Below the pieces are notes generated by a model, which was not told the DNA's origin, made no database searches, and was given only the letters and a program-made list of their open reading frames with translations. Position numbers and translations under genes: made by a program. Shown piece by piece: positions 35,101-60,319 of a stretch of 64,000 bases of DNA. Origin of the DNA: Candidatus Pacearchaeota archaeon (lineage in GTDB: Archaea; Nanobdellota; Nanobdellia; Pacearchaeales; UBA284); the NCBI GenBank assembly GCA_026395795.1, contig JAPLYB010000040.1:5464-69463 (forward strand), in the 5' to 3' direction. Positions within the stretch are counted from its first letter, which is position 1; each line of letters begins with the position of its first letter.

Positions 35101-36111
35101 ACAATCAATAGCTTCTTTTGATAAACCAACAAACAAACATTCATTGCCCAGAGGAAAAAAAGTATTTTTTAAAGATGGATCAAAATTGCTGCCTGTCTCT
35201 GGATTAATTGAGCATCTATAGCCCTGAGAACCATATAATGAAAGACAAGAATTAAGTATGCGGGTTGGACTATACAAACATTGGAAATTGCCTTTACCAT
35301 TACAGTCTACTTTATTCTGATCACATCCATTGCCTGAAGAATCTTGCAATTGCATGCATGTGGCTCGATCAGCAACAAATGCCTTATCATAATCAATATA
35401 ATTGCCTTTTATGGTATTGCCCATAGCACCATCATCTCTTAAAACAATTCCCACTCCTCCCTGACCAGGAGTTTGTTTTATAACGTTGTAACTCACAATA
35501 TTGTTATCTGCTTTTGAACCCCAAAGATAAATTCCACGGTATTTTGCATTTATAATTAAATTCCGTATTATATTTGTGTTAACACAATCTACTAGAAAAA
35601 TTCCATTTTCTCCAGCATCGGTTATTTTGTTTTGAGTAATTAAATATCCCCCTTTCTCACAGGATGTAATTTGGATGCCGTGCATTTTAGAATCACTAAT
35701 AACATTATTTTCAATAGTCACATTTGGACTTTGCCCATTATTAATATAAATACCAACATCCCATCCCTGCAAGGAACAATTTTTAATGGCAACATCATTA
35801 GAATATATCCACACACCCGCATTTGACTTAGTATAACCCCCATATATGATAGAATGCCCTTGACAATCCAACATTCTTGGACAAGGGTCATACAGTGAAT
35901 GTACCGTAATCCCATAATCAACCTCGGATCCGCAATTTAAATTTCTAGTAAGGTAATTTCTCCCACAACCAAGTTCAAAATGGCATCCTGTAACTTCTGT
36001 ATCTGCTAACACAATCACAATATTGTTAATAAAAATCACAACCAATAATACAAAAACAAATGAAGCAAAAACAGATAATTTTGACGCCTTTTTCCTTTCC
36101 TCTTTTACCAT
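32149..36111 (-). CDS. giant (1320 aa) surface protein with right-handed parallel beta-helix (PbH1/NosD-like) repeats, Cys-rich modules and C-terminal TM anchor
   Basis: Repeated ...NN.I..N.I.....GI.. beta-helix-like repeats, N-terminal TM, C-terminal FAPWQILIVLGLLAAYYSFFII + KKKKR. Confidence 0.55.
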   Translation of the reverse strand: MVKEERKKASKLSVFASFVFVLLVVIFINNIVIVLADTEVTGCHFELGCGRNYLTRNLNCGSEVDYGITVHSLYDPCPRMLDCQGHSIIYGGYTKSNAGVWIYSNDVAIKNCSLQGWDVGIYINNGQSPNVTIENNVISDSKMHGIQITSCEKGGYLITQNKITDAGENGIFLVDCVNTNIIRNLIINAKYRGIYLWGSKADNNIVSYNVIKQTPGQGGVGIVLRDDGAMGNTIKGNYIDYDKAFVADRATCMQLQDSSGNGCDQNKVDCNGKGNFQCLYSPTRILNSCLSLYGSQGYRCSINPETGSNFDPSLKNTFFPLGNECLFVGLSKEAIDCTGKLDSYKTCKNNKVYDCNGCGGNHKEDCGTKKVCRNGACVEITNPIVVLISPENNTRVLEGTPTDFKCDVYGINEPPTYVTLYGSWGGGRHAERIISPGLEENVFENVILPKTGQQESYIWSCVALIREIGSLVESEKNTLIVSPLPGPVCGNNIIEPLEICDGSNLSGKTCLDFGYTGGSLSCHSDCLSYDLSGCTNNQQPRICICNSCLGCKQNLTDPSCITVNLTSNINTNDERCLDYSFNNKVFDCQGHTINGTRGFYTQGGAIDFHGTSNATVKNCIINHFYYGLLLGGSNNIIFNNIINNSFGSGIYLRNAMNNSILNNTIINAGSSGIRSILSKSTINNNKICNNTYIDFLSGDYFPDWFGSTGDNNFCDKPDGWNDTGTTGCTKTCGLSRFVCNITNANILDIYCTGESGSCKVGNNITINISVENMTACTPDKVNKIELNATEILDPEHPNGDPCKVSLRNSTYIRKTYGPGFGGSFYSNWTISSISQKCAGRDMNVTKAALYNGTNSANQIGEKIGSFGTFVFAGAPVPFMFNLSLYTCGDENLNGKCENFTINGAVSVNGTPWGKTPKWKMTESGWENISFGDASPWYKPSDILLNLIEDTNYTGIYTKDPMNNATIIVFARNEEGEFINALIRIWNESRIVASGNNETKYEYDGNFGWPAVFTIEFRNVASYYTTPGNISFSLTGNGIYIFNGIYQSSGNRPCFCDDGTLCGSCIGDGTGRFCEAESATHGRFMFACDSHGCTCNSAHGTCITDPTKQNYNKCAGGGIDVCHDMLHSNSPGNCQGNNNQFTCFWDLGRNPPLNDSYHCERCFAVNGTPISCSNYINRSACEKTTSPLQDACEIGSGCPGAPSGAYDCNCIWKANACQLSFNLSSGGGSGGSQACTLNLTVEECSIGACGTNKKMVIYQYSNATNPGTCFLPDQTSCVRCGVETERMPFFAPWQILIVLGLLAAYYSFFIIKKKKRIINII

Positions 36112-36151
36112 CTTTCTTATAAGAATAAAGGGTTTATAAAAATGACGAAAA
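36098..36151. repeat. 54-bp direct repeat copy 1 (promoter + first 5 codons of giant gene 32149..36111)
   Basis: Identical 54-mer tcctcttttaccatctttcttataagaataaagggtttataaaaatgacgaaaa also at 37444..37497. Confidence 0.9.
36128..36141 (-). promoter_or_regulatory. archaeal BRE/TATA-like element (TTTATAAACCCT on coding strand) ~25-30 nt upstream of giant-gene ATG
   Basis: Same motif recurs upstream of ORFs at 37357, 53781 and 57149. Confidence 0.4.
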
Positions 36152-36252
36152 TCAAAAGATTTTCGGACATGCAGAAAAATCTCATTTTTCTAGCATTTAT
36201 ATTTTTTACCAATTAACAGAAATTAATATGACAAAAATCTCGCACAATGAAT

Positions 36253-36504
36253 TCACACTTCCCAAACAGTTTCTTTCTCATTTATCTTTTCAAAAACTTT
36301 TTTTATATCTACTATTTCTATAGTCTTTTTACCATTGATAGCTGCCTCTTTTGCCAAAAGTTCGATTATTTTAATTATGAATTCATTAAAATACTTGTTT
36401 AAAGATTCTGCTGCTTTTTTCTTTATTCGTATATCTTTCTTATGAATCCTGCTTAAAACATTCCTTTTAATTAACAGATTATTTAAATTTTCTTTATTTT
36501 TCAT
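36253..36504 (-). CDS. small hypothetical protein (83 aa) in HEPN/MNT cassette
   Basis: ORF immediately downstream of the MNT gene on the same strand. Confidence 0.3.
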   Translation of the reverse strand: MKNKENLNNLLIKRNVLSRIHKKDIRIKKKAAESLNKYFNEFIIKIIELLAKEAAINGKKTIEIVDIKKVFEKINEKETVWEV

Positions 36505-36510
36505 TTTTAA

Positions 36511-37065
36511 TTAATGCATTAGAATGTAACTTTTCTTATATTTTATTTTAAGATTATTAAAAAATTCTTCGAATAAACTATCTGCAAAAATAGGAACAGT
36601 AAATGCTTGATTAACAATCCACTCGCCATTGTTTTTTTTAACCATTCCAGGTTTTCCCTTTTTTCCTCTTAAAGCATTAACAACTTTGACTTTATTTGAA
36701 GCAGATAAAGAAGATAAACTATAAGAGAATAAAACTCTGCTTGAAAATTTTAAATTTTCAGACAAAGATTTTTTGTTTTTTATGCTATATCCCTCTCTTA
36801 AAAGAGCATTTATTAATAAATGCGGATTAATAAAAAAGTCTTTTGCAGTAACAACGCTAATATGGAATTGATCAATCTTCTGTATATTATCCAGTATATC
36901 CCTTGTAGGAGAATGATAAAACAAGACAGCAAGATCTATATCTCTTGGAAGAGATTTGCCTTTTACAGCAGATCCAAACACAATTAAGTCTATTACTTCT
37001 TTATTACTAAGTAAAAAACCCAATTTATTTTTTATTTTTGATATAATCTCTGATTTCATAAGCAT
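36511..37065 (-). CDS. minimal nucleotidyltransferase (MNT)
   Basis: LIVFGSAVKGKSLPRDIDLAVL motif (GS...D.D). Confidence 0.6.
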   Translation of the reverse strand: MLMKSEIISKIKNKLGFLLSNKEVIDLIVFGSAVKGKSLPRDIDLAVLFYHSPTRDILDNIQKIDQFHISVVTAKDFFINPHLLINALLREGYSIKNKKSLSENLKFSSRVLFSYSLSSLSASNKVKVVNALRGKKGKPGMVKKNNGEWIVNQAFTVPIFADSLFEEFFNNLKIKYKKSYILMH

Positions 37066-37357
37066 ATTTTTTCAGATTTAAACCATCTGTTTTATTTAAT
37101 TTTTGATTATATGACTGGGTGTAGGTTTTGAATAAACTAGAAATTTTGTTATAAATTTCTTTAAAATGAGTATTCAATAAAGAAAATCGATCTACATGAT
37201 TTTTAGGCAAAATTTTAATTTCTTTATAAATTAAGTAATCACAAAAAATAACAATTGCTTTAAAAAAATCAGAAACAGCAACATTAAATCTGTTTTTTTC
37301 TAAATTTTCTTCACCAGATTTTAAAAATTCTTCAGCAGTGTTTAATAAATCTTCCAT
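37025..37357 (-). CDS. HEPN-domain protein
   Basis: 110 aa helical protein upstream-overlapping the MNT gene; NVAVSDFFKAIVIFCDYLIY region HEPN-like. Confidence 0.45.
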   Translation of the reverse strand: MEDLLNTAEEFLKSGEENLEKNRFNVAVSDFFKAIVIFCDYLIYKEIKILPKNHVDRFSLLNTHFKEIYNKISSLFKTYTQSYNQKLNKTDGLNLKKYAYEIRDYIKNKK

Positions 37358-37443
37358 TAATATATTAATCTATTTTGCTATTTATAAACTTTTCGGTTAA
37401 TGCATTAATCGGATAGGTCTAAGTGCTCACTCGCTTCTTCCGA

Positions 37444-37497
37444 TCCTCTTTTACCATCTTTCTTATAAGAATAAAGGGTTTATAAAAATGACGAAAA
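37444..37497. repeat. 54-bp direct repeat copy 2, followed by a degenerate remnant of the giant-gene N-terminus (MVKEDRKKRVST*)
   Basis: Identical to 36098..36151; the minus-strand reading downstream continues with diverged homology to MVKEERKKASKLS. Confidence 0.9.
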
Positions 37498-37532
37498 CTT
37501 AGATGGGTTTATGATTGATTAAGTTATGCAAA

Positions 37533-38147
37533 TCATACAAACAATTTTATTCCAGAGATAAGCTCTACCCAGTTACAAGAATTGACTAAGACTATATGAT
37601 CTTTTAAAATTTGTTTTGCAAATCCATCTTCTTTACGAAGTGCATCAATAAAATTTTCCTTAGTAACAAACCTTATTGAAGGCTTATTCTTAATAGTTAT
37701 AAAACAGTTTTCAACTGCTTTTTCAACTTTTTTTCTGGTTTGAGTTTCTGCAATAATCAAAAGATCCAAATCACTTTCTTTGGTTTCGCTATATCTTGAA
37801 AAAGAACCAAAAACTAGTGCACAAGAGATATAATCTGAAACTTCATTTTCAAATTGAAAAAAAGGGCCTTTTAATTCTTTGTGTTTTTCTAAAAACTTTA
37901 ATCTTTTTTCTTCTTCAATTAAAGAAAAAATAATCTTTCCAGTCACACTAAACTCCGGTTTTATGATTCTTAATGGAGGTTCAATTTTTTGAGAGATTAT
38001 TTTTGCATCTAATAATTCATTGATGTATCTATACCCTATTTTTTGAGACACTTTTGCTTTTTTCAGCAAATCAGATATTCTGATATTAAAACTTTCATAA
38101 ACAATCTTCAAAAGATTATACTTCGCTTTTGAAATTGGGAATATCAT
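37533..38147 (-). CDS. nucleotidyltransferase (MNT) with N-terminal HTH
   Basis: LVFGSFSRYSETKESDLDLLII motif; N-terminal HTH-like KIGYRYINELLDAKII. Confidence 0.6.
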   Translation of the reverse strand: MIFPISKAKYNLLKIVYESFNIRISDLLKKAKVSQKIGYRYINELLDAKIISQKIEPPLRIIKPEFSVTGKIIFSLIEEEKRLKFLEKHKELKGPFFQFENEVSDYISCALVFGSFSRYSETKESDLDLLIIAETQTRKKVEKAVENCFITIKNKPSIRFVTKENFIDALRKEDGFAKQILKDHIVLVNSCNWVELISGIKLFV

Positions 38148-38653
38148 TCAAAACACCTCTTTTCTACAAAAGAAACAAATTCTTTTGTAAAATTATATAT
38201 CTTTGAAGCATCTTCTTTAGATAATTGTTTCCATTTTGTTACATCATATTGACCAATTTTTCTTAAAGAATAAGAAATTTCAAAACCGGTAAAATCAGAA
38301 AACTTTGTGCTTATCTTTCTAAGATTTTCATAAATATTTTGTGGAACTAAATCAAAATTTTTTAATGCTAAAATAGCACAAAAATGATCTTTAGAATAAA
38401 AACCTTGGAATTTAATTAGCAAAGCATTTATTGCATGATGAATGGCGTAATACGCTTTTATCACAACCCAATCCCAAGCTTCATTTTCATAATCTACCAA
38501 AATTTGAGATAGATCACTTTTAGCTTTTTCCAAATGAAGATTAAATTCTTCTTTTGAAACAAGGATATACTTTTTTAATTTTCTACAATTGCAAAATCCC
38601 TTGCTAATCGACTCTTTATTTTTTGGAAGTGTCGAAATAATATTATCTATCAT
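38144..38653 (-). CDS. HEPN-domain protein
   Basis: AYYAIHHAINALL HEPN-like helix; overlaps the downstream MNT gene start by 4 nt. Confidence 0.5.
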   Translation of the reverse strand: MIDNIISTLPKNKESISKGFCNCRKLKKYILVSKEEFNLHLEKAKSDLSQILVDYENEAWDWVVIKAYYAIHHAINALLIKFQGFYSKDHFCAILALKNFDLVPQNIYENLRKISTKFSDFTGFEISYSLRKIGQYDVTKWKQLSKEDASKIYNFTKEFVSFVEKRCFE

Positions 38654-43909: not shown

Positions 43910-44032
43910 GGACCCGTAGCTCAGTTTGGATAGAGCACTTGCCTTCTAAAGGCTCTCTTTAAAAAAGAGACCCTGGAGAGAAATCTCAAAAAAGACAGCA
44001 AGGGGTCGCAGGTTCAAATCCTGTCGGGCCCG
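43910..44032 (+). tRNA. tRNA-Arg (anticodon TCT) with ~48-nt intron at canonical position 37/38
   Basis: Manual fold: acceptor GGACCCG/CGGGCCC (one A:C at 3:70), D-arm GCTC...GAGC, anticodon stem CTTGC/GCAAG around loop CTTCTAA, T-arm GCAGG-TTCAAAT-CCTGT, discriminator G; 48 nt between the anticodon loop and the 3' anticodon-stem strand. Confidence 0.7.
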
Positions 44033-44082
44033 TACCCCTTTGGGTTCGGAACCTTTATATAGTCGAGGAATGTGCTATATAC

Positions 44083-45357
44083 ATGGTTAAGAACATCGAG
44101 GAATATTCAGAACTTCTCGAGGACAAAGACCTCAGAAGATGGTACGAGAATGTTGGTAGAGGATCAAAGATAACTGCGGATGTTTATCTGAGAAGACTTG
44201 GCAACTTCTATAGAACTTATAAGAAAACTCCGAAGGAACTAATCAAGTTAAGTGAGAGAGGTGTTTACAACTTGATTCTGGATGTTATCGGAGATATGGA
44301 AAGCAAGAAATTTTCTGGGAGTTATATTCATTCTGTTATAAAGGCAATAAAGTCATGGTTAGCATTCAATGGCAAGGATATAAAGCGAAAAATAAGAATT
44401 AAGGGAGTTCAGGAAACCCCAACACTAGACAACGAAAGAATCCCTACACAAGACGAATTAAAAAAGATATTTTTGGCAGGGGATGAAAAAACAAGAACAG
44501 CATGCGCATTTCTTGCTCATTCTGGCTTGAGGCCCGAGGTGCTTGGGAATTATCGTGGAGATGACGGATTAAAAATAAGCGATCTTCCTGAACTTGAGAT
44601 TAAGGGCGATAAAGTTGAATTTAAAAAAATACCCGCCTTAATAAGAGTAAGGCCAACTTTAAGCAAAACAGGAAAAGAATACCTTACTTTCCTAAGTGAA
44701 GAAGGTTGTGAATATCTTAAAGCATATCTTGAAATGAGATTAAGAACAGGGAAATTAACAGAAAATTCAGCGATTATAACGCCAAAGCTGGCAAATAAAG
44801 AATTTATTACATCAATTAACATTGGAGATGCAATCAGGAAAGCCTTAAGAAAATCTGGTTTTCCTTGGCGTCCTTATGTTCTTAGGTCTTATTTTGATAC
44901 TCAAATGATGATAGCTGAATCAAAAGGCTTGATAATAAGGGATTACAGAACCTTCTTTATGGGGCATAAAGGAGATATCGAGCATGTTTATACACTCAAC
45001 AAAAAAAGGCTTCCAGAAAACATAGTAGAGAACCTCAGAGAATCCTATAAGAAAGCGCAAAAATACCTGCAAACAGGAGAAACTGGGAAGGATGAAGAAA
45101 TAACTAAATCATTCAAAAAACAACTATTGCTTGTCGCTGGCTTTAAAACTAGTGAGATTGAAGATAGCCAGTTAGCCCTTAATGATGATGAGTTTCAGAA
45201 GTTAGTAAGGGGGAAACTTCTTAAGAGTATGGAGAACAATGGCATCAAGCAAAAAATAATTCCCACAGCGCATATTGAAAATTATATAACGCAAGGATGG
45301 GAATTTGTATCAAACCTGCCGGATAATCGTGCAGTTATCCGAGTGCCCGAGAATTAA
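44083..45357 (+). CDS. int: tyrosine recombinase / integrase (intact, tRNA-adjacent)
   Basis: C-terminal catalytic region with AHSGLRPEVLG (Arg), HKGDIEHVYT (His..Tyr) motifs; 51 nt downstream of tRNA-Arg. Confidence 0.75.
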   Translation: MVKNIEEYSELLEDKDLRRWYENVGRGSKITADVYLRRLGNFYRTYKKTPKELIKLSERGVYNLILDVIGDMESKKFSGSYIHSVIKAIKSWLAFNGKDIKRKIRIKGVQETPTLDNERIPTQDELKKIFLAGDEKTRTACAFLAHSGLRPEVLGNYRGDDGLKISDLPELEIKGDKVEFKKIPALIRVRPTLSKTGKEYLTFLSEEGCEYLKAYLEMRLRTGKLTENSAIITPKLANKEFITSINIGDAIRKALRKSGFPWRPYVLRSYFDTQMMIAESKGLIIRDYRTFFMGHKGDIEHVYTLNKKRLPENIVENLRESYKKAQKYLQTGETGKDEEITKSFKKQLLLVAGFKTSEIEDSQLALNDDEFQKLVRGKLLKSMENNGIKQKIIPTAHIENYITQGWEFVSNLPDNRAVIRVPEN

Positions 45358-45677
45358 TCTCCCTTTTCTTTTTCTTTATACAAGAAAAACAATATAGGAA
45401 TAGCATCTTTGGATTTTTTCATTTTTCTTAATTCTTTTTCAAAATCTTTCTGATTCTCATGAAAAATCATCTTGTAAGAGAATTTTGATTTTTTATCTTC
45501 TAATTGAGGGAATTTATCTAAAAACTTTTTCTTAAGCCTTATTAAATTCCATGCGCCTTGATTAGTGGTATAAGAGACTATTCCTTTAACACAAACACTT
45601 GGAGTAACTGGTCTTAATACCTGTAAATCACTATCTTTAATTTCCTCATCTCTAAGGTCTTCTTTTACAAGAGTCAT
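45354..45677 (-). CDS. hypothetical protein (107 aa)
   Basis: ORF only, convergent with integrase. Confidence 0.3.
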   Translation of the reverse strand: MTLVKEDLRDEEIKDSDLQVLRPVTPSVCVKGIVSYTTNQGAWNLIRLKKKFLDKFPQLEDKKSKFSYKMIFHENQKDFEKELRKMKKSKDAIPILFFLYKEKEKGD

Positions 45678-46140
45678 TCTTTCACCACCTTGTAAGCAGA
45701 ATTTAGATAATTCTCACATAAAATGCAACACAGAACATAAACATAAAACCCCAAACATGAAATGAATGGGGTTGGCATGTTACATGCCCTCCTTAAAGTA
45801 CATAACAGGAATCTTAAATACAAGAAAGTTAATATAAAACAGAACTGACTCTAATTTCTCATTCTTCAAATTACTCTGAAGCTTGATCATGTTTTTCCTA
45901 TCAAACTCTTTAACGCCATCAAGGGTTTTTATCTACTCTAACATATATTTTCAAGTATATATAAAGCTTTCTAATAGTATCACTGCAAAATGACAAACGA
46001 TAGAAAAATTTAAAAGAGCTGAAGTCTTATTTTATGAATCGCCCATTTTTTAAAAACCAGAATATAAAGAGGTTCAACTATTGACCGAAGATTTACATAA
46101 TTTTTATAAAGCTCGACAACTATACTTCATTAATAGGAAA

Positions 46141-46890
46141 ATGAGTAAAAGAGGACAAGTTACTTTATTTGTAATTATCGCGATTATTATAGTTGCTTTA
46201 GCTTTGTCCTTCTTTTTTATATTTAAAGAAAAGATTGCTATCCCAAGAATAGATCCAAAACAAATCATAGAAACGAGAACAAGAATGGATTACATCTCTG
46301 AGAAGTCAACTTATGATATTCTTTACAAAATTGGTGAACAAGGGGGTTATTTAGATTTACCCCCACAGTCTTTAATAACTGAAAACAAACAAATAGCCTA
46401 TTCACTTTATGATAATAAGAATAATCTTCCTTCTTTGAGTTTTATTGAAAACGAAATTTCAGATTATACGGAAAAAACCATTGTTTTTTATTTAAATGAT
46501 TATTACAGAACAAATTCAACAAGTTCAAACATAAACTCAACAAATTTTGATTTTGATAATATAAGTGTCCAAACAATCATACAAAATGAGGAGATTATAA
46601 TTAAAACTAGTCTTCCAACAACAATTCAGGGCAAAAATGATGAAACTTTTCACATAGATTCTTATACAACGACAGTTCCATTTCAGTTTGGTTATGTTTA
46701 TTCTATTGCTAAAGATATTACAGAAAGAAGATTAAGACATCAAGCAATAGACGAATCTTATTTCAGAAACAAGGCTCTTTCAGTTGATGTAATTCCTATA
46801 GACTCAACAAAAATCATCTATAGTTTAAAGAAGTTCGATAATGCAAACAATAAAACCTTTGTCTTCAATGTAGCTTTTTTTGAACCATGA
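46141..46890 (+). CDS. type IV pilin-like protein (class III signal peptide, SKRG|QVTLF)
   Basis: MSKRGQVTLFVIIAIIIVALALSFFFIF; ATG at 46141 preferred over TTG at 46081; shares GGYLD block with the other two pilin-like proteins; stop overlaps the giant-gene start (ATGA). Confidence 0.5.
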   Translation: MSKRGQVTLFVIIAIIIVALALSFFFIFKEKIAIPRIDPKQIIETRTRMDYISEKSTYDILYKIGEQGGYLDLPPQSLITENKQIAYSLYDNKNNLPSLSFIENEISDYTEKTIVFYLNDYYRTNSTSSNINSTNFDFDNISVQTIIQNEEIIIKTSLPTTIQGKNDETFHIDSYTTTVPFQFGYVYSIAKDITERRLRHQAIDESYFRNKALSVDVIPIDSTKIIYSLKKFDNANNKTFVFNVAFFEP

Positions 46891-49800
46891 AAAGAAAAAC
46901 AAACCAACAGATGATTAAAAGTGTAATTTCAATGTTTATAATTATCCTAATTATATCCACAACTTTTTCAAGTTCAGTCCAGATTGCAAAAGCAGATGAA
47001 ACCTTAAATCCTGAACAAAGCACAAAACTATTGGAACTTTTACATGATAAAACTTCAGCTTCAGCATATTTTTCAAACAAAGCAAACTTTAATCAAGATC
47101 CTTTTCTAAGCCAAGCTTATTTTGGAAACATTTCTACTTCTACATTTTCTTTTTGGAGAGATAAAAATTTAGTGTATAATAGCCAGAATAATGAGATAAG
47201 CAATAGCAAGTTCGTAATAAACTTAAATGATTTTTACCAAGACTCTTTGTTTTTTTATGGGGATAAAAGCATTGAGCTTAATGGAAACAAAATTTATGGA
47301 AATGCATATATATCAAAGGCAAATGATACTTTTGAAGAAACATTTATTCTTAAAACTAATTTTCCAAATCTTGATAAGATTCTTGTAACTTTCAAAAGCA
47401 ATAATGCAACAATAAATATCACCCCCGACAGCCTAGTTTTTCAGGGGCATGTTGTTGTAGATGTTTTCCTAAAAACCAAAAGAAAAATCTCTTTTGAATC
47501 ATTTAGTATCACAAAAATAAATAAAGACCTAAAAATAGAATCAAGAGATTCTTCATTAACTTTGTCAAAAATCTTTGAGCCAACTCAAAATAACTTTGAG
47601 TTTTATTTTCCAGAACACAAATTTCAAGGAACATCAATAATCTTCTTCAAAAATGCGAGCATTGACTCAATAGATAAAGCACAATTAATAAACTCTTCAT
47701 ATTTTGACGATAATTTTTATGCCAATTATAATAGTGGCTTCTTTTCTTATACTTTAAACAAGCAAAACTTATTTTTTAATTCAAAACCAACAACCTCGGG
47801 AATATTCATAGATTCAAATAAAATAACTGCTCGGGGAATTTTCTCAATATTTATTGACAAATCGCGCTTAAATATAAACTCTGAAAATGGAAATTCGGTT
47901 TTAGAGTATTCATGGACAAAAACGAATGATAATTATAACTATGAATATAGTGCAAATGGGAATTTAAGTATAGATACGAGAGATTATAGCACTAGAGGAG
48001 ATTTAAAAATTTCTGAGAAAACAACAGATAATATAAAAAATTTAGATGTCTCTTTACAATCAAGCCAATCAGCTGTATTAAAAATAAAAGTGTATTCTGA
48101 TGATTCTTACTTTTCAGAAGCTTTAGATATTCCTATAACCCTCAAAAAATCTACTAGTTCCTTTTTAATTGATGAAAAAACACTAAAACAGATAACTGAG
48201 TTAAAAACGAAAAACGGAATAGGTCTTTATTATTCAAAGATAAAAGTAACTACAGGAAATAATGTTCTTAATATAGACCCAGAGACTAGTTGGTTTAATA
48301 CAATTCAAATAGACAAATCAATTACGGGTCAGACTATAATAAACATTATTGGCAAAGCAATTCAAAATAATCCTGAAACAGAACCAGAAGGCAAGTTTAA
48401 TGTTCTTTCCCCAGACCAAGTTTCTCAAGAAATAGGACAAGTTAATGATGAAATTTGGATTGATGGTGTGCAAAATGCAAAACTTGAGACTTTTGCTCGA
48501 GCATTAAGGGAAGCAAAATGGCAACAAGCCTCTTCAATTCTTTCAGGGTTTAAGTCTTCAGGGGATGAAACAAACTTAGCCATATACAGTAGAATAAAAG
48601 AAAATGACCCCATTCTTGTTGAACAACTAGAGTCGAATCAATTTTCCTCTACCTTTTTTAAGAACCTCGCAAATTCTATAGATTATCTAAAAAAATCAGA
48701 AACAGCTGAACAAGAGTATTCTAATATTCAAAAACAGTTTTCAGCTAAAAATCTAAAGTATGATGTTTCTCCAGTAGAACTAGAATGCAAGAATAAATAC
48801 CTTCTTTATAACAGATTTCAGATTATTTCTCAGTCTGGAGAAAATTCAGAACAATCTCCAGTAGAATACAAAGCAAGTGAGATTGCAAGTTCAATTGGAG
48901 TTTCAGTTTATCAGCTATATCAATTAAACAAAGATCAATTACTTGGTGCTATTTATGATTTTGATAAAAACGAGATAATTGATTCAAAAACAAATGAACC
49001 TTTCTTATTTAATGAAAATATTACTTTTCTTGCTCCAGACACGCCCCTTACTTTGTCGGCAAAAGAACAATTTGTTGAATCTCTAAGAACACAAGTTTAT
49101 GCTTCAAGATACTACAAAACAGCTTATTCTGGGATAAAAAGCTTAACAACTGCGGATGAAGACGCAAGACAGCAAGTAGATAATCTAAATAATCAAATCG
49201 CAAATGACAAGAAAGTTTATGCTTTCCACAAATTCTTAAGAGATAATCAAATAGACAAAAAAATTCACGATAAAAAATATAGTGAAGCTTCTCAATTACT
49301 TGATAAATACCCTGAAAAATCATTTGTTTCTCAGTATATAAAAGAAAAACTGCAAGATAAAGAAATTGATTTTTCGCAAGGGGATATTTATGCTATGCCC
49401 ATAGATGAACAAACTCCTGGATTTGGTTTTACTGGAATGATTGTTGCTAATACAGAAACATTTTCAAGAAATCCCCTAATTCAAACTTTAATGGGAGTAG
49501 ATTCTTCTGTAAAATCTGGATTAGAGTCAGGTATAATTAAAAATTTCAGAGAGCAACTTGGATTAAATAAAGAAAGTTTATTGGATTCAGATGCATTAGA
49601 ACTTCTTGCTTCATACAACGCTCTTGAAGAGTATACTAACAAATACAAACAAATAGAAGTAGGCATTAATGACAAAACAATTATTCCTAGCGAAGCACTT
49701 GAAGAAGAAATTGCTATAATCAATCAAAAAATAGCAGATTACACTAAAAAAAGCGATAATCTTTGGTTTAATGCTTACAGAAAGTTTATGCTTTCTTCAA

Positions 49801-52577
49801 GCAATATCCCAACAAAAACAGTAAAATCTCCTTTAACAAATATTATTTATGATACTACAAAAACCTTTGAACAAAATAATTTTGACAAGCAAGCTAAAGA
49901 TGCGATTAAATTTGTTGTTTCTGTCGGAGTTATTGTCATAGCAGGAATAATTTCTGGAGGAACAGGCGCAGCAGTTGCTGGCTATTTAATAGAAGGACTT
50001 GGAGCAACTGCAACTTATGCAGCAACTTGTGCATTTGTAACAAATGTTGTTGTTTTTAGCGTTATAGCTTCTTATGGAAATGCTGCAATTCAATCTTCTT
50101 TTGAAAATGAAGATATCTTAACTGCATGGAACAATGAAATTGGCTGGAATCCTGAAAAAGGTCAAATTGGACAAAAATTTGTAAGAGATATTTCTTGGAA
50201 TTTCGTAATGTTTGGAGTCTTGCAAGGAACAAGCCAGTTTTTTAGAGAATGTAAATTCAATTATAATGCTTATAGCACATTAAAGACACAAGGATTGTCT
50301 GAAACAGAGATAAACTCTTTACTGAAAACTTCTGATGGAAAATTATTAGTCTCCAAATTTCTTGGCTCTGGAACAGGACAATTGCTTGCTCCAGTTTCTG
50401 AATTGGCTATATTTGATTTAATTGGGATAGGGCAACAAGGAACAGAAGTTGTTTTATCAAATGAGCTTTCTAAAGATGAAAAATTACAAGCAATAAAACA
50501 GTCTTTAGAACCATCAAGCATAGCAAAAATGTCTATTGATAATGCCAAATTTTTAATTGGACTTAAAACGGCAAATTCTGTTTTTTACAGTTTGACAAAA
50601 TCAATGCAATTAACAAATGAATTAAAGGCAAATTATCCACAAATGGAAGCAACAAGACAAGCACAATTAAAGGAGCTTGTCTCAACTGATTTACAAATCA
50701 GAGATAAGCTTTATGAATATGTCCAACAACCAACGAATGACAATCTAAGACAAAAATTAATCGACTTACAAGGGCAGGCACAACTTTTAAGGCAAAGTGC
50801 ATTAAGCCAACTCGGGAATTCTCCAGAAGATATACTGTTAAAATCAGAAATTTTGGATAAAGCGGGGAATGTTCCATTTACTTCTAGTAAAACATATCAG
50901 TTAGCTGAAAGATTAACCATTGATTCAAGAGTTGAAAGAACTTTCCTTTATGATGAAAAAAATCCAATAACAAGAGAAAATTTAGAAGAAATATTCCCCA
51001 ACGCTTTAATTCTAGAAGGCAAGGATAGAATCTTTACAATAATTAAAGAGGGAAACTCGTGGAATGTTGCAAAAACAACAGCAAGCGCTGAACAAATAAA
51101 TGCAGAAAAAAGTTCAGCAGAAACTTATAAGAAAACTGTTGTTGATGCGCCAGGAGTTGGAATGCTGGCGCTTCCTGCCTCAAATACCGTTCCTATCTCA
51201 GAAATTATGCAAAAATACTCCAATCAGGGAGTTGTTTTTATACACGCCTTAGACCCAATCGGTTTTAGCGGATATGAATCTTGGAGTTTAATAAGAAAAG
51301 GAGTTAGTTTGCAAGACAGGATGAATATTCTTTTAGGTTTAGAACCGTATATCGCAGCCTCAACAATTACACCAGGAGTTGGAGATAAAATCTGGAAAGG
51401 AATCGGCGTTATATTAAATGGAGGAGATATTACCTATGCATGTCCTGGCTCTGCCTGCTCAATATCAAAAGGAATATATGACCGAGTAACTTCTATCGGT
51501 GCACAAATTCCAAGAGGGCAATTAGATACAGACATAGATGTTGCAGTGAAGAGAGAGTATGAAAGCCCCACCACTCTTTCATCAGAATATTTGATAAAAG
51601 AGTATAATGAATTTGGGGTTAAAAATCCCAAAGTTGCGGCATTTTATATATCATTGGATTCTAAATTTAAGAATAGTATATCCACCTCTACGGCATTGAA
51701 GTATATACAAGAAATCTGTGCTAATCTGGGCTTGCCATTATATACTATCAAAGACGGAAGAATTTACGAAATAAAGAGCATAGAATATAAAACAAATAGC
51801 AATGGCGATTCAATTAGTTGGGAATTTATTCTTGGTAAGGAAATTTCAAATCAAGAAATTCTTCAAAGTGATTTTGAATTGTCTCCTCAAAATAAACAGA
51901 AGATGATGAGAGATTTATTTGCAATCTTTCCATTTTCAAATAATGAAATACAATTATACAGAATGTGGAGTATGGGCAGAGAAGCTTATATTGATATAAA
52001 TTCTTTAAAAAATCCTTCTGAATTTGAGGGGGAAAAGATTAATGTTAATGGAGAAGTAAACATTGCTTATATAATAAAAAATGGTCAGATTTTTAAGTCA
52101 GCTAGCACAACAACTTCTATGGGATTATGGGAGAATTATGGATTTCCTCCCAAAGCGATTTCTTTAAGATTAAATGGTGGATGCTTTACTTTTTTATTCA
52201 GTCCCAGAGAAATTCCACATCCCTCATCTAGACCTCCCCTTCTGGAAAGCAAGGATTTCTTAACTTCTATTCAGTCTCTTTCTAAATCAAAATTAGAAGA
52301 TGTAACGCGAGAAGATTTAGCTTATGCATTGTATGGATTCGGTGAAGAAGCAGCAAAACATAAGGATTTTGCAACCCAAAAAGTTGCATTTGAGATGGCA
52401 GAAAGAATGGGTTTTTCTGAAGCCAAATATGAAAATATAAGAGACTCTAGAGGATTTTTAAATAATGAATTTAAGATGTTCTTAGAAGACTTTAGTGATA
52501 AAGATGTAGGATTAGTAAAGGAAAAAATTGCAGCGGTATTTGGCTATATCCCTAGAGAATTTTATAAAAGTGAATAA
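46887..52577 (+). CDS. giant (1896 aa) low-Cys secreted protein with signal peptide and central Gly/Ala-rich TM block
   Basis: Signal peptide MKRKTNQQMIKSVISMFIIILIISTTFSSSVQIAKA; hydrophobic block AIKFVVSVGVIVIAGIISGGTGAAVAGYLIEGLGATATYAATCAFVTNVVVFSVIASYG; Asn/Ser/Lys-rich. Confidence 0.55.
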   Translation: MKRKTNQQMIKSVISMFIIILIISTTFSSSVQIAKADETLNPEQSTKLLELLHDKTSASAYFSNKANFNQDPFLSQAYFGNISTSTFSFWRDKNLVYNSQNNEISNSKFVINLNDFYQDSLFFYGDKSIELNGNKIYGNAYISKANDTFEETFILKTNFPNLDKILVTFKSNNATINITPDSLVFQGHVVVDVFLKTKRKISFESFSITKINKDLKIESRDSSLTLSKIFEPTQNNFEFYFPEHKFQGTSIIFFKNASIDSIDKAQLINSSYFDDNFYANYNSGFFSYTLNKQNLFFNSKPTTSGIFIDSNKITARGIFSIFIDKSRLNINSENGNSVLEYSWTKTNDNYNYEYSANGNLSIDTRDYSTRGDLKISEKTTDNIKNLDVSLQSSQSAVLKIKVYSDDSYFSEALDIPITLKKSTSSFLIDEKTLKQITELKTKNGIGLYYSKIKVTTGNNVLNIDPETSWFNTIQIDKSITGQTIINIIGKAIQNNPETEPEGKFNVLSPDQVSQEIGQVNDEIWIDGVQNAKLETFARALREAKWQQASSILSGFKSSGDETNLAIYSRIKENDPILVEQLESNQFSSTFFKNLANSIDYLKKSETAEQEYSNIQKQFSAKNLKYDVSPVELECKNKYLLYNRFQIISQSGENSEQSPVEYKASEIASSIGVSVYQLYQLNKDQLLGAIYDFDKNEIIDSKTNEPFLFNENITFLAPDTPLTLSAKEQFVESLRTQVYASRYYKTAYSGIKSLTTADEDARQQVDNLNNQIANDKKVYAFHKFLRDNQIDKKIHDKKYSEASQLLDKYPEKSFVSQYIKEKLQDKEIDFSQGDIYAMPIDEQTPGFGFTGMIVANTETFSRNPLIQTLMGVDSSVKSGLESGIIKNFREQLGLNKESLLDSDALELLASYNALEEYTNKYKQIEVGINDKTIIPSEALEEEIAIINQKIADYTKKSDNLWFNAYRKFMLSSSNIPTKTVKSPLTNIIYDTTKTFEQNNFDKQAKDAIKFVVSVGVIVIAGIISGGTGAAVAGYLIEGLGATATYAATCAFVTNVVVFSVIASYGNAAIQSSFENEDILTAWNNEIGWNPEKGQIGQKFVRDISWNFVMFGVLQGTSQFFRECKFNYNAYSTLKTQGLSETEINSLLKTSDGKLLVSKFLGSGTGQLLAPVSELAIFDLIGIGQQGTEVVLSNELSKDEKLQAIKQSLEPSSIAKMSIDNAKFLIGLKTANSVFYSLTKSMQLTNELKANYPQMEATRQAQLKELVSTDLQIRDKLYEYVQQPTNDNLRQKLIDLQGQAQLLRQSALSQLGNSPEDILLKSEILDKAGNVPFTSSKTYQLAERLTIDSRVERTFLYDEKNPITRENLEEIFPNALILEGKDRIFTIIKEGNSWNVAKTTASAEQINAEKSSAETYKKTVVDAPGVGMLALPASNTVPISEIMQKYSNQGVVFIHALDPIGFSGYESWSLIRKGVSLQDRMNILLGLEPYIAASTITPGVGDKIWKGIGVILNGGDITYACPGSACSISKGIYDRVTSIGAQIPRGQLDTDIDVAVKREYESPTTLSSEYLIKEYNEFGVKNPKVAAFYISLDSKFKNSISTSTALKYIQEICANLGLPLYTIKDGRIYEIKSIEYKTNSNGDSISWEFILGKEISNQEILQSDFELSPQNKQKMMRDLFAIFPFSNNEIQLYRMWSMGREAYIDINSLKNPSEFEGEKINVNGEVNIAYIIKNGQIFKSASTTTSMGLWENYGFPPKAISLRLNGGCFTFLFSPREIPHPSSRPPLLESKDFLTSIQSLSKSKLEDVTREDLAYALYGFGEEAAKHKDFATQKVAFEMAERMGFSEAKYENIRDSRGFLNNEFKMFLEDFSDKDVGLVKEKIAAVFGYIPREFYKSE

Positions 52578-52726: not shown

Positions 52727-53242
52727 TTAAGCGTGGATTATACCCTCAAGTCTTTCTTTGCTATATCTAGTCTCTAATTCACTATCAACGTCTTGTTCAG
52801 TTCTAGTTAGTTGAGTACCAAGACTTTCATCTCCACTTAAACTATTATATTCGTCAAACTTTGTGGCATAAACCCTTAGTTCTCGTATGTTTCTTTTATT
52901 TTCTTGTTTTGCGCGTTTTTTATCTAAACTTTTTCCCTTTGCAATTCCGATTGCCGTACCAGAAATACAACCAACAAGACCACTGAATCCCATCAAAAAT
53001 GGAATGTTAATTGGGGTGTATTCGGGATAAGAAGAACCTCCCGGGCTGATATTCATGAGTATGCCTATCCCTATTCCAGCCAAAGTCCCCAAAACTGCGC
53101 CAGTAACACCACATGCTCTTGCTTCATATGGTTTTTTTGTTTTACATGTTCCTATTTTTTGTCTATAAACTGCTGTTCTATAAGCTTGAATAACTTCATC
53201 CCTTCTTGAAGGGTCATAAATATCTAGGTTTTCTGTTGTCAT
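52727..53242 (-). CDS. glycine-zipper two-TM membrane protein (paralog of 53239..53781)
   Basis: YDPSRR N-terminal motif, two GxxxG-rich helices, charged C-terminal tail. Confidence 0.45.
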   Translation of the reverse strand: MTTENLDIYDPSRRDEVIQAYRTAVYRQKIGTCKTKKPYEARACGVTGAVLGTLAGIGIGILMNISPGGSSYPEYTPINIPFLMGFSGLVGCISGTAIGIAKGKSLDKKRAKQENKRNIRELRVYATKFDEYNSLSGDESLGTQLTRTEQDVDSELETRYSKERLEGIIHA

Positions 53243-53781
53243 CTTAAATTTGCCTCCAATTCCATTCTTTCCCGTTGTTCTTCGAATCTAGCTTTTTCAT
53301 TTATCCCTATTTGTTTAAATAGAGCAACAAGACCTTCACTTTCAGAAAGACCATTCACTTGATCAAATTCTTGAGCATATTGTTCAAAATAATCAGTTTG
53401 TGATTTGTTTTGTTTTATTGCGGCATTCTTATCTGCTTTTCTTCCTTCTAAGACTCCGAATATGCTACAAATGGCTCCAATACCGAGACCACCTAACAGA
53501 AACTCAAGATTAAAATTTGGGTCTGGAGTAGAATAACTTTGATAAGGTCCAGTTGAAACTGCACCAATGGCAAGAGTCTCCAAGAATAGTCCACCCAAAG
53601 TTCCAAAAAGACCAGCCTGAAGTCCACCAGCGATTGCTAGCTTATGATTTTTTACATTATAATTTCCAGTCAATCTTGCGTTAATTAAATCTGTATAAGA
53701 ATTTTTCATTTCTTGCCATCTTGATGGATCATAGACTCCTCTTGATTCTTGCTCTTGTATAAATTGATTTTTCTTTGTCAT
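53239..53781 (-). CDS. glycine-zipper two-TM membrane protein (paralog)
   Basis: VYDPSRW motif, GLQAGLFGTLGGLF and LGGLGIGAICSIFG helices; overlaps the downstream paralog by 4 nt. Confidence 0.45.
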   Translation of the reverse strand: MTKKNQFIQEQESRGVYDPSRWQEMKNSYTDLINARLTGNYNVKNHKLAIAGGLQAGLFGTLGGLFLETLAIGAVSTGPYQSYSTPDPNFNLEFLLGGLGIGAICSIFGVLEGRKADKNAAIKQNKSQTDYFEQYAQEFDQVNGLSESEGLVALFKQIGINEKARFEEQRERMELEANLR

Positions 53782-53882
53782 TTTAATCTACAATCTCTAA
53801 GTATTTAGGGTTTATAAACTTTTCGTTTAATTATCTCTTTATAGTAGTAACAAAAGTATAAACCCTAAAAAGTTAATAAAAA

Positions 53883-53908
53883 GAAAAAAGGGCTTTCGCC
53901 CTTTTTTT
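53883..53908 (-). terminator. GC hairpin (gggc-gaaa-gccc) followed by T-run immediately after stop of 53907..54185
   Basis: aaaaaagggctttcgccctttttttaa seen directly; minus-strand reading gives hairpin then TTTTTTT. Confidence 0.4.
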
Positions 53909-54185
53909 AATCCTCGCCAAATCGAATGATTTGGTATTTTGTTCGAGGATCTGTTGCAGATTGCCTGCGTTTTACTCCACACGCATTCTGCCAGACTTTT
54001 CTTTTCTGGTTCCATCTAAAGCCAAGTTCTTTCAAGAACGAAAGTTCTTCTTGGCTTAGTCGCTGTTTGAACTCAGCCCAAATCCATAATCCTACTGCGT
54101 AGCAGTTTCTTACGAACTCTGGATTGTGCTTTTCAATAGCTTCTATCACTTCAATCTGTTTTGGATTTTCTTCATCGTTTTCCAT
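53907..54185 (-). CDS. hypothetical protein (92 aa) with LGFRWNQKRKVWQ motif
   Basis: ORF with promoter-like upstream region. Confidence 0.4.
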   Translation of the reverse strand: MENDEENPKQIEVIEAIEKHNPEFVRNCYAVGLWIWAEFKQRLSQEELSFLKELGFRWNQKRKVWQNACGVKRRQSATDPRTKYQIIRFGED

Positions 54186-54705
54186 TTTTCAAATTACCTC
54201 CTTTCAGCTTTTTGCTAAATTTATTTATCATACCCGACTTGAAACGAACTGATTTTTACATTTTTAGAAAAAATTATCTCTGGAAGAATGACGAGCTATA
54301 ATTTTTACGACCCTGCACCTTTCTGAAGCTTGCGAAAGAAAGACAAAGCAGATAAGCCCGAAGCCCGCGAAAATTAGGATTAAAGCGAAGCGTGTCTTGT
54401 GGGAACCCTCTGGGGCTAGACTTAATCTTTATTTTCGGGCTGGCGAGGAATAGCTTATTTGCTTTAAGGGGAAAAATCTAAAATGAGGGAGTTTAGGGTA
54501 TGTAAGATAAATAAATGAAAAAAGCGACAAAAAGGAGTGTAAGAAAATAGAAACTAGAAAATGCAATTAGTGAATAGAATCTATCTTTAAAGACAGAGTT
54601 CTGAATAAGGAGTGCAGTAGGTTGGATTTGGGCGTAGAAAAGATTAAAAAGAAGGAGTAACAGAGGCTGTATTGGTGCGTTAAAGGTTGGTAAAGGGGGT
54701 TAAAA

Positions 54706-55674
54706 ATGGAAAATAGTTTAAAAAAGAAAGTCTTAAAAAGTAGAAAATTGATAGTTATAATAGGAAAAGAGAGAAAAAAGATGGTTAAAAATATAAATCT
54801 TAATCTAAGATTTCTAAAAATTAACTATCTAAATAATATTTGTTATTATATCAAAGAAAAAAATCCTAAAGAAGTATTTACTTTAAAACTAATAAATTTT
54901 TTCAAAGAAAACTTTGATAGTAAGTCTATATTTAATTTTCAAGGGATGAACTATCGTTTTGGAGCAGTTGAAATTGGACAAAATCATATTTGTGGTAAAT
55001 TGTGGGAATTAAAAAAGAAACATGAAAAAGATTATCCTTGGACTGGAACGGATTATGAAATAAAACCACAGCTTGGAGCAGATTATCGTTTTGCTTGGTT
55101 TTATATAGACATTCAAACAAAACATTTAGTTTTACAGGATGAAAGAGATTTAACTCCAGATAAAGCTATTCAAGTTTTATGCTCATGGTTTGATGATTTT
55201 CATGGAATAAAAGAAGGGATAAATATTCAATACCTCAAAAGTAAAAAAGACTTTTTAAATGAATTGAAAGAAGCATATAAAATAGTTTATGCTAAATTTA
55301 TTTTGTATCCTAGTAATTTTGACTATGATGGTATAAGCAAACCATTAGATGATAGTCTTCATGCTTTAGAAATAAGTGAAATGAAACAAGAAATAAAAAG
55401 TAATAATGGGGTTAAATTGGAATTAGATAAGCCAAATGTTTTTTCTTCTTCGTTGGCTCAGGCATTAAGGGGTAATGGTAAAGACCCAGAAATAAAAACT
55501 CAAGATAAAAAAGGGAATATTACTATATTAACAAAAAAGATGAAGCATATAAAAAAGCAAATTCAAGGGTTTAAAGATATAAATGATATTAAGAAAATTA
55601 AACCACATCTTATTGCACAACTCAAAGAAGTTATTAAAGAAATGGATAATAAAAATGAAAGCAAAAGTGATTAA
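54706..55674 (+). CDS. hypothetical cytoplasmic protein (322 aa), first gene inside transposon
   Basis: ATG inside the left TIR; no recognisable motifs. Confidence 0.45.
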   Translation: MENSLKKKVLKSRKLIVIIGKERKKMVKNINLNLRFLKINYLNNICYYIKEKNPKEVFTLKLINFFKENFDSKSIFNFQGMNYRFGAVEIGQNHICGKLWELKKKHEKDYPWTGTDYEIKPQLGADYRFAWFYIDIQTKHLVLQDERDLTPDKAIQVLCSWFDDFHGIKEGINIQYLKSKKDFLNELKEAYKIVYAKFILYPSNFDYDGISKPLDDSLHALEISEMKQEIKSNNGVKLELDKPNVFSSSLAQALRGNGKDPEIKTQDKKGNITILTKKMKHIKKQIQGFKDINDIKKIKPHLIAQLKEVIKEMDNKNESKSD

Positions 55675-56140
55675 AGAATTTTTTAAAGCTAAGGCATTTA
55701 CTATTTCAGTGGTTATACTCTTACTTTATGCAATATTTTTTCATGGTAAAATAATAATTGATAAAGACAACTTAGAACACATATTTGGTTTTTTTCTTAC
55801 TCTATTTCCCTTAATAATAGCAATATTTACAATATTAATATCGTTTACAGATAATAAGTTTTTGAAATTCTTAAAAGATACAAAGGGAGCAGATAAAAAG
55901 ACGAGCATATATGATGAAATACTTGCTTATTTCATTATTAATACTATTTTAAGTTTGATAGCAGTTTTAATTGCTGGATTTGTCTTTTGTTTTAAACTAT
56001 CTGAATATGCTTTCTTGCAGTATATAATGATTTTTGTTTTTTCTTATACCATAATTTCATTTATTCAGTTAATCAGATTTATATTCTATTTTGCTAAGAA
56101 AAAAGCAGATTTTGTTAGTATAACTGAGAAGACATTTTGA
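55655..56140 (+). CDS. small 4-TM membrane protein, hypothetical (start trimmed to MKAKVIKEFF)
   Basis: Four hydrophobic helices; overlaps the stop of the upstream gene by 20 nt. Confidence 0.4.
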   Translation: MKAKVIKEFFKAKAFTISVVILLLYAIFFHGKIIIDKDNLEHIFGFFLTLFPLIIAIFTILISFTDNKFLKFLKDTKGADKKTSIYDEILAYFIINTILSLIAVLIAGFVFCFKLSEYAFLQYIMIFVFSYTIISFIQLIRFIFYFAKKKADFVSITEKTF

Positions 56141-57044: not shown

Positions 57045-57148
57045 TTACCTTATAGGTATAACCTATTAAGTAATATTGACTATTTAAATCTTTCGCTTTG
57101 GGTATAACTTAATAGGTAAGTTTATAAACCATAAAAATATATATCTAT

Positions 57149-59892: not shown

Positions 59893-59895
59893 TAA

Positions 59896-60309: not shown

Positions 60310-60319
60310 AAGAATCAAA

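Follow-up and report, generated by a model that had tools for sequence, protein, structure and literature searches.

In the portions of two surveys on which we draw here, elements integrated into archaeal genomes are described as targeting the 3' ends of tRNA genes, including genes that contain introns, with attachment (att) sites as short as 8 bp and with transposon insertions in their interior (PMC6563490; PMC8371274). According to the part of the first survey that deals with thaumarchaeal elements, these range from 2.6 to 98 kb with a median of 17 kb, and some have no identifiable att sites (PMC6563490). Here, we report the analysis of a 64,000-nucleotide stretch of contig JAPLYB010000040.1 from a Candidatus Pacearchaeota archaeon, hereafter the window, in which an intron-containing tRNA-Arg(TCT) gene is followed by an open reading frame (ORF) for a tyrosine integrase that begins 50 nt past the end of the tRNA. 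We consider it likely that a non-viral element with a non-suicidal tyrosine integrase was inserted at this tRNA-Arg(UCU) gene, which would have served as its chromosomal attachment site (attB). Comparison with an integrase-free relative makes the left boundary of the foreign DNA directly visible; the right end does not lie in the window.

The tRNA-Arg(TCT) gene is the sole tRNA gene of the window. ARAGORN in its intron mode called exons of 75 nt in total with a 48-nt intron after position 37, and in its default mode, which allows no introns, it returned zero tRNAs over the 64 kb. The Rfam model RF00005 matched the gene with 51.3 bits (gathering score 29; E = 4e-8) and an insertion of 50 nt in the anticodon loop. 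The exon junction at 37/38 is crossed by the alignment of four intron-less orthologues (loci L085, L087, L089 and L090), and two further orthologues carry introns of 51 nt (L086) and 33 nt at the same site that are unrelated in sequence, so that intron lengths over the orthologous genes are 0, 33, 48 or 51 nt. In the minimum-free-energy structure from RNAfold the anticodon stem is kept and the anticodon UCU is paired with an intron AGA located 1 nt before the 3' splice site; the introns of L086 and L088, though unrelated, show the same order (AGA, N, splice site, A), and the strict 3-4-3 geometry of a bulge-helix-bulge is not seen in this structure. Because some 30 nt separate the intron from the recombination region and orthologues exist with and without introns, the intron is incidental to the integration. 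An earlier sequence-only reading of the window had proposed a tRNA-Arg(TCT) with an intron of about 48 nt at 37/38, closely followed by an intact 424-residue tyrosine recombinase. ARAGORN, Rfam and the orthologue alignment bear out the first half of this proposal; the 50-nt gap, the catalytic residues and the predicted fold bear out the second.

The integrase is an intact, divergent tyrosine recombinase, and its ORF is full-length relative to those of its homologues. An alignment of 36 homologues with 54-100% identity shows no variation at R150, K195, Y265, R268, H295 and Y303, and the positions of these residues in the motifs GLR, YVLR and GH...Y suggest that they form the catalytic set of a tyrosine recombinase in which Tyr replaces the first His. 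The AlphaFold model of the protein (predicted local distance difference test score 77.9) was compared with the PDB using Foldseek; the best matches were archaeal XerA (5hxy and 4a8e, E = 8e-8), followed by the integron integrase VchIntIA (4e-6), with further matches to XerH, Cre and lambda Int over 315-350 aligned columns. The integrase is thus predicted to have the two-domain fold, with a core-binding and a catalytic domain. Residues 305-424 form a C-terminal extension of about 120 residues that is conserved in the family and lies outside the PDB matches. The PHROG profile phrog_1 'integrase' was matched with E = 6e-10, phmmer against PDB sequences gave no meaningful match, and PF16795 was not matched in the Pfam search. 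About 2000 relatives were found among 5.8 billion proteins, the best 120 of which are full-length and 55-100% identical; the protein with 100% identity is annotated as 'site-specific integrase' of a Candidatus Pacearchaeota archaeon, and the labels on others include Bathyarchaeia, Nitrososphaerota and Freyarchaeota and more. Relatives with 55-67% identity span metagenome-assembled genomes (MAGs) of Bathyarchaeia, Nitrososphaeria, Asgard-labelled lineages and DPANN.

The left boundary was located by comparison with empty sites. A metagenome scan with the 5' exon of the tRNA-Arg gene as the query, in which A3 was required, returned six contigs with an orthologous gene, and no integrase adjoins the tRNA in any of the six. 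One of them, L086, shows synteny with the window between about 33.7 kb and position 44,034, a region that includes TatD and the genes upstream of it, with blocks of 80-91% nucleotide identity. In L086, TatD and the tRNA-Arg(TCT) with its 51-nt intron are followed, in this order, by genes for an RRM RNA-binding protein and a DEAD-box helicase; no integrase lies among them, and the flank to the right of its tRNA begins with TATTTCAG. Because the synteny stops at the 3' end of the tRNA and L086 continues there into genes that are missing from the window, the foreign DNA has its left boundary (attL) at the tRNA 3' end.

Two further features of the integrase-free loci may be recorded. At about 7123-7184 of L086, 14 nt of the T-arm of the tRNA-Arg gene (CGCAGGTTCAAATC) are repeated about 30 nt past the gene; this copy may be a scar left when an element was once integrated and excised at this integrase-free site. 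In two more distant relatives, L087 (2166-2900) and L089 (9403-11794), the 3' end of the tRNA faces the start of TatD, with about 2 kb between the two genes in L089, whereas in the window and L086 it points away from TatD. This suggests an inversion with one break beside the tRNA.

The tRNA 3' end itself differs between the two kinds of locus. It reads ...TCGGGCCCG (GGGCCCG) in the window, whereas all six integrase-free orthologues have ...TCGGGTCCG (GGGTCCG), in which T70 pairs with A3. In the ARAGORN drawing, A3 (43912) opposite C70 (44029) is the single non-pair in the acceptor stem of the window tRNA. The sequence GGGCCCG/A together with a conserved spacer (TACCCCTTTGGGT in the window) is common to the window and the integrase-linked loci L081, L001 and L082, whose integrases are 87, 78 and 67% identical to that of the window, respectively; the L081 integrase adjoins a tRNA-Lys(TTT) gene carrying a 69-nt intron. 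Because the integrase-free tRNAs have GGGTCCG and the integrase-linked loci have GGGCCCG followed by the spacer, the element probably overwrote the tRNA 3' end, and the window tRNA from C70 or earlier would be the element's copy in place of the native end.

The putative core recombination site (Table 1) consists of imperfect inverted arms, GGGCCCGTACCC and GGGTTCGGAACC, around CTTT and includes the palindrome ACCCCTTTGGGT at 44034-44045; the equivalent segment of the complete element L082 is its 20-nt att repeat. Archaeal promoters have a consensus made up of a transcription factor B recognition element (BRE) and a TATA box, and on this basis the adjoining BRE-like TCGGAACC and TATA box TTTATATA, the latter about 25 nt ahead of the integrase ATG, are predicted to be the promoter of a leaderless integrase mRNA. 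The family shares a layout between the tRNA end and the integrase gene: a segment of 12-14 nt that is often palindromic, the motif TCGRAACC and, about 25 nt ahead of the ATG, a TTTAAATA-type box, the latter two recurring 5' of integrase homologues at many loci. Seven nucleotides, tRNA positions 67-73, are common to all five att repeats of the complete relatives and hint at the crossover region; the site geometry differs between the two arrangements described below. The 3' ends called by ARAGORN for the family tRNAs are inconsistent, some taking in CCA or extra bases.

The linkage between integrase and tRNA extends over the family. Scanning one genome per species gave 80 loci with homologues 35-78% identical to the window integrase, from MAGs of DPANN, Bathyarchaeia, Nitrososphaeria (many loci) and Thermoplasmata. 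Counted over the 76 loci with enough upstream sequence, a same-strand tRNA called by ARAGORN ends 45-338 nt 5' of the integrase match in 39, at a distance of at most 96 nt in 33 of these, and a T-arm-like hairpin occupies that upstream position at 6 further loci; as a control, such hairpins were found in 43 of 1560 random 260-nt stretches. The adjacency of tRNA and integrase is far beyond chance. The linked tRNAs are those for Lys, Arg, Pro, Ser, Ala, Val, Cys, Met and Ile, and about one third have introns. In a second arrangement the integrase faces an opposite-strand tRNA 8-11 kb away, and the insertion lies between direct repeats that cover the tRNA 3' end. The complete elements are listed in Table 1. 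In L082, which has the arrangement of the window, a tRNA-Arg(TCG) gene is followed by the integrase gene, and the repeat GGGCCCAAACCCATTTGGGT, composed of the last 7-8 tRNA nucleotides and the palindrome, appears again 6.0 kb further on, before host genes. For 22 relatives with a tRNA directly upstream, no att repeat was found within at most 10 kb. At L002, L003, L019, L091 and L092 a mere 3' tRNA-like fragment with the palindrome lies 5' of the integrase, resembling an element-borne attachment site (attP). Some genomes contain several copies of the integrase (e.g. L065/L066 and L067/L068).

Three further points concern the origin and distribution of the family. Four contigs of one MAG, each with a tRNA-Pro and an integrase, were considered as tandem or different elements; this was rejected, as they are strain variants of about 92% identity. 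A viral origin was likewise rejected, since no PHROG viral hallmark genes were found among the window proteins and patterns of the integrase family found no relatives in IMG/VR. Lastly, three loci with bacterial titles (L002, Acidobacteria; L003, Chloroflexia; L019, Acidobacteriia) have integrases 60-62% identical to that of the window; they carry the archaeal-type TCGRAACC/TTTAAATA promoter motif as well as the 3' tRNA-like fragment, and one of the contigs is 1.39 Mb long. Either misbinning or spread across domains would account for them.

In the mechanism that we propose, an integrative element would have used the chromosomal tRNA-Arg(UCU) gene as attB, and its integrase would have carried out recombination between the tRNA gene's 3' end and an attP site situated directly 5' of the integrase promoter. 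This attP would consist of a segment resembling a tRNA 3' end, followed by a short palindrome. Integration would have rebuilt the tRNA from its own 5' part and the element's copy of the 3' end, with C70 for T70 and hence an A3:C70 mismatch, so that one mismatch in or near the exchanged region would have been tolerated and fixed. The element DNA would start at 44029 or just before and would comprise the core palindrome, the BRE/TATA promoter, the integrase, the co-travelling ORF and the ORFan cargo. A 4.7-kb transposon would have struck the element later, and the AbiE modules would be carried by it.

The downstream 20 kb looks foreign because it has non-conserved cargo, a giant ORFan, a nested transposon, AbiE genes and a shift in tetranucleotide composition; the foreign region covers at least 19.97 kb and runs off the end of the window. 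Several observations nevertheless weigh against the proposed mechanism. The first is the missing right end. Neither the tRNA 3' end nor the core palindrome nor the spacer was found a second time in the window, direct or inverted, by exact 8-11-mers, by IUPAC patterns with up to three mismatches on both strands, by a search for an inverted spacer copy or by Smith-Waterman alignment of the tRNA plus spacer with the downstream 18.6 kb; these searches covered the window, which leaves out about 8 kb of the source contig. Inspection by eye in the sequence-only reading had likewise seen no attR. The genes to the right of the L086 tRNA, for the RRM protein and the DEAD-box helicase, are absent from the whole window at both the nucleotide and protein levels. 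With neither attR nor a right flank in the window, both the size and the integrity of the element are in doubt: the island either exceeds 20 kb, is a composite or is now without its right end. The second concerns size: the complete relatives measure only 6-11 kb, for which reason a single element of more than 20 kb is not the default expectation. The third is composition. The region 44-64 kb differs from 1-36 kb (z = 2-10), and it is heterogeneous along its length; the shift is not sharp at the tRNA, however, as 34-44 kb is also atypical, including 36-40 kb with its toxin-antitoxin genes. The fourth is the junction. C70 might in principle have arisen independently by point mutation, and the position of the crossover in the subfamily of the window is uncertain because the L082 att repeat lies mostly downstream of the tRNA. 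Finally, the integrase scores 22.9 bits against the Pfam family Phage_integrase (PF00589; E = 8e-5), under the cut-off of 27.1. The earlier suggestion that the tRNA is the island boundary and attB consequently stands for the left side, through the break in synteny with L086, C70 and the att repeats of the family, and lacks its counterpart on the right.

The alternative that survives best, which we still regard as unlikely, is a composite or decayed integration hotspot, in which the integrase's own element would be the first 10 kb or so (about 44.03-54.2 kb), the remainder (transposon, DUF523/Nudix genes and AbiE modules) would derive from older or independent insertions, attR would have been deleted or mutated and the island would have become fixed. 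The size of the complete relatives and the heterogeneous composition of 44-64 kb fit this alternative, as does the comparison with L001. The integrase module of L001 aligns with window positions 43990-46055 at 75% identity, and a 114-nt segment of the window, 53868-53981, is 94% identical to the far end of L001 (5523-5634) by blastn and present in no other fetched locus. Between these shared parts the cargo differs: in the slot of window positions 46081-52577, L001 has a Dam-like methylase and winged-helix proteins. The 114-nt segment represents either a module shared by the elements or a patch introduced by recombination, and the match hints that a module ends near 54 kb, where no att sequence accompanies it; indeed, no recognisable att-like sequence occurs near 54 kb or at the flanks of the transposon, which argues against an element ending there. 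The transposon insertion at 54.7 kb, the T-arm repeat after the L086 tRNA as a possible scar of earlier events and the thaumarchaeal elements without identifiable att sites mentioned in the relevant part of the survey (PMC6563490) would all be compatible with a composite island. Decay is harder to reconcile with an intact integrase that has kept every catalytic residue and a consensus promoter, and the host right flank that should follow the first element was not found after 54 kb or elsewhere in the window.

A tRNA gene borne by the mobile element itself, with the true integration site elsewhere, deserves hardly any credence. Contigs L026, L030 and L033 begin just 5' of their tRNA and the window has no second tRNA copy, which would fit this idea; however, the arrangement of TatD and tRNA, together with 10 kb upstream, is conserved in the integrase-free L086, the same tRNA 5' exon is found in six integrase-free contexts and the L026-type contigs are the strain variants mentioned above rather than distinct elements. 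A housekeeping XerA-type dimer-resolution enzyme that lies beside the tRNA by chance is effectively refuted, even though archaeal XerA provides the best structural matches and the weak NCBIfam match is to the XerA model: the score against the XerA equivalog NF040815 is 40 bits, 180 bits short of the cut-off of 220, the protein has 424 residues with its 120-residue extension compared with 266-280 for XerA chains, the gene is absent from the syntenic L086, and the family occurs beside many different tRNAs, within repeat-bounded elements and in multiple copies in some genomes. The question raised by the sequence-only reading, whether the integrase is a chromosomal XerA homologue, is thereby answered in the negative.

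Within the preferred reading of an integrated element, a broader view can be formulated, which we hold to be rather improbable as a whole. Integrases 87% identical to one another sit at tRNA-Arg(UCU) in the window and at tRNA-Lys(UUU) in L081. A family spanning the archaea, with only loose specificity for the identity of the tRNA, might recombine at, and overwrite, the near-universal 3' strand of the acceptor stem, GGGCCC[A/G]; the A3:C70 lesion would then affect what is possibly the sole AGA-decoding tRNA of an AT-rich DPANN genome, and the element would mobilise a 1896-residue ORFan surface protein. If this were true, the element would impose a lesion on an essential tRNA or hold the tRNA hostage, and the mobilised surface protein could matter for the attachment of the symbiont to its host.

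The cargo downstream of the integrase (Table 1) does not recur beside the other family integrases at the fetched loci compared. The convergent 107-residue ORF is 92% identical in L081/L034 and 44% in L001, and had no Pfam, PHROG or NCBIfam match. The 269- and 1896-residue proteins had no match in Pfam, PADLOC, PHROG or NCBIfam; when translated, this region shows a signal-like segment at the N-terminus and hydrophobic segments in the centre, and a word-seeded search of 5.8 billion clustered proteins found the 1896-residue protein (46887-52577) itself as the only match. A GC-rich patch (54290-54470, about 48% GC) lies in the 480-nt intergenic region between the 92-residue ORF and the transposon; it was considered as an RNA gene or an att remnant and rejected, with no Rfam match and folding-energy z values of -0.65 and -0.09. 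The transposon is bounded by terminal inverted repeats of 40 nt with 88% complementarity (54668-54707 and 59309-59348) and by a perfect 9-bp target-site duplication, AACAGAGGC, at 54659-54667 and 59349-59357. Its other genes encode a DUF4747 protein, a membrane protein and a 256-residue ORF, which is a possible restriction partner. The block with the 166-residue ORF, DUF523 and Nudix genes has no counterpart in syntenic relatives, and these may be either island or host genes. The Abi genes were also matched by Pfam AbiEii and DUF6577, and an AT-rich 37-nt repeat family (TTTACTTTAACTTTACTTAAAGTTACTTTAA...) lies 5' of each AbiEi gene (60900-60936 and 62697-62743); the repeats may be AbiEi operator sites. 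The transposon, restriction-modification-like module, AbiE and Nudix genes listed downstream in the sequence-only reading are all recovered here, the module being represented by the methyltransferase.

Table 1. Features of the window and complete elements of related integrases.
Feature	Position	Strand	Length	Basis or remark
tRNA-Arg(TCT) gene	43910-44032	+		ARAGORN with introns, Rfam RF00005, aligned orthologues
tRNA-Arg(TCT) parts	5' exon 43910-43948; intron 43949-43996; 3' exon 43997-44032	+		
C70 of the tRNA	44029	+		mismatches A3 (43912); T in native orthologues
Putative core recombination site	44026-44053	+		overlaps last 7 tRNA nt; sequence reading, L082 att repeat
Predicted integrase promoter	44046-44061	+		BRE-like TCGGAACC (44046-44053), TATA box TTTATATA (44054-44061)
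Tyrosine integrase, intact	44083-45357	+	424 aa	ORF, homologues, invariant residues, predicted fold
Convergent ORF	45354-45677	-	107 aa	travels with the integrase in closest relatives
Membrane-anchored protein and secreted/membrane ORFan	46081-52577	+	269 and 1896 aa	
Three small ORFs	52727-54185	-	171, 180 and 92 aa	no significant family matches
Segment shared with L001	53868-53981		114 nt	terminator-like hairpin and last 25 codons of the 92-aa ORF
Nested transposon	54668-59348		4.68 kb	inverted repeats, target-site duplication
IS6/IS1-like DDE transposase, N-terminal zinc ribbon, in transposon	56115-57044	-		Pfam, NCBIfam
N6/N4 DNA methyltransferase, in transposon	57186-58517			Pfam, NCBIfam
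166-aa ORF, DUF523 and Nudix block	59392-60778			
DUF523 (2-thiouracil desulfurase-like) protein	59896-60309			Pfam
Nudix hydrolase	60320-60778	-		Pfam
AbiEi/AbiEii abortive-infection (type IV toxin-antitoxin) pair	61115-62679	+		PADLOC 165 and 252 bits
Second AbiEi-like gene	62999-63928	+		PADLOC 66 bits; runs towards window end
Complete element L008			10.4 kb	23-nt direct repeat
Complete element L010			11.0 kb	14-nt direct repeat
Complete element L018			8.8 kb	15-nt direct repeat
Complete element L078			7.7 kb	52-nt direct repeat
Complete element L082			6.0 kb	20-nt direct repeat; arrangement of the window, via 67%-identical protein P0004

The region upstream of the tRNA has features of its own. 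The genes at 1-16 kb are housekeeping genes (purine synthesis, topoisomerase, GluRS and OapB). A free-standing ORF of 413 residues with a LAGLIDADG domain (9848-11089) adjoins the topoisomerase gene, and the homologue of OapB, the origin-associated protein, at 14526-14903 could mark a replication origin near 14.5 kb. Two tandem HEPN/nucleotidyltransferase (MNT) toxin-antitoxin pairs occupy 36088-38653 in an AT-rich stretch (GC 0.26), each preceded by a 64-nt repeat (36088-36151 and 37434-37497) whose copies are 95% identical. Because L086 appears to hold a single HEPN/MNT pair, this looks like a recent tandem duplication.

With an empty site at hand for comparison, the window cleanly exemplifies integration at a tRNA gene in a member of DPANN. 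Mobile elements of DPANN are not mentioned in the consulted portions of the surveys, which deal with Thaumarchaeota and cultivated lineages (PMC6563490; PMC8371274). The integrase family, being large and having a recognisable att and promoter architecture, could serve as a marker for islands in archaeal MAGs, and the base conversion at position 70 would, if C70 came from attP, show an element supplying the tRNA 3' end. Current concepts are unchanged: a known mechanism is extended to a new host and a new family, and the added value is modest, consisting of the DPANN host, the empty site, the base change in the acceptor stem and the att/promoter architecture of a widespread family.

As far as the portions of the surveys used here describe it, the locus matches the published pattern of archaeal integrated elements (PMC6563490; PMC8371274). 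The closest likeness is to the integrated mobile elements and cryptic integrated elements of Thaumarchaeota (Krupovic et al., 2019, PMC6563490), for which the part that we cite reports a tyrosine integrase as the only conserved gene, insertion in the 3'-distal part of tRNA genes, some of which have introns, short att repeats with a median of 17 bp (14-52 nt in the integrase relatives here), a cargo of restriction-modification, toxin-antitoxin and ORFan genes, and transposons inside elements. There are nevertheless differences. The first is the host, which is a member of DPANN (Pacearchaeota) here; the second is that attR was not seen within 20 kb; and the third is the conversion of one base in the tRNA acceptor stem, which is not described in that part of the survey (PMC6563490).

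The window integrase also resembles the non-suicidal integrases of the pNOB8 type (Badel et al., 2021, PMC8371274), in which the gene is intact after integration, attP is adjacent to and outside the gene, and a tRNA is the target; the likeness drawn here is one of arrangement. The pNOB8-type att sites of Sulfolobales measure 40-50 bp (PMC8371274), and the window integrase has its conserved extension of about 120 residues at the C-terminus. It is barely seen by Pfam and in this recalls, by description only, 'fam30-08', which has no Pfam match and is spread over phyla (PMC8371274). Archaeal XerA (PDB 5hxy, 4a8e) has the same two-domain tyrosine recombinase fold at about 20% identity, whereas the window protein is longer and linked to an element. 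The SSV1-type integrases are also archaeal tyrosine recombinases that target tRNA genes; in these, however, attP lies within the integrase gene, which is split upon integration. This suicidal type was rejected for the window, as its integrase ORF is unsplit at 424 residues and the att-like site lies 5' of the promoter, outside the gene. Lastly, bacterial tRNA islands with P4-like integrases, as presented in the cited part of the thaumarchaeal survey (Williams, 2002, cited in PMC6563490), share with this locus a restored tRNA 3' end, an integrase gene beside the tRNA and a cargo of defence and accessory genes, and the window differs from them in its archaeal domain, its predicted archaeal BRE/TATA promoter and its other family of integrase.

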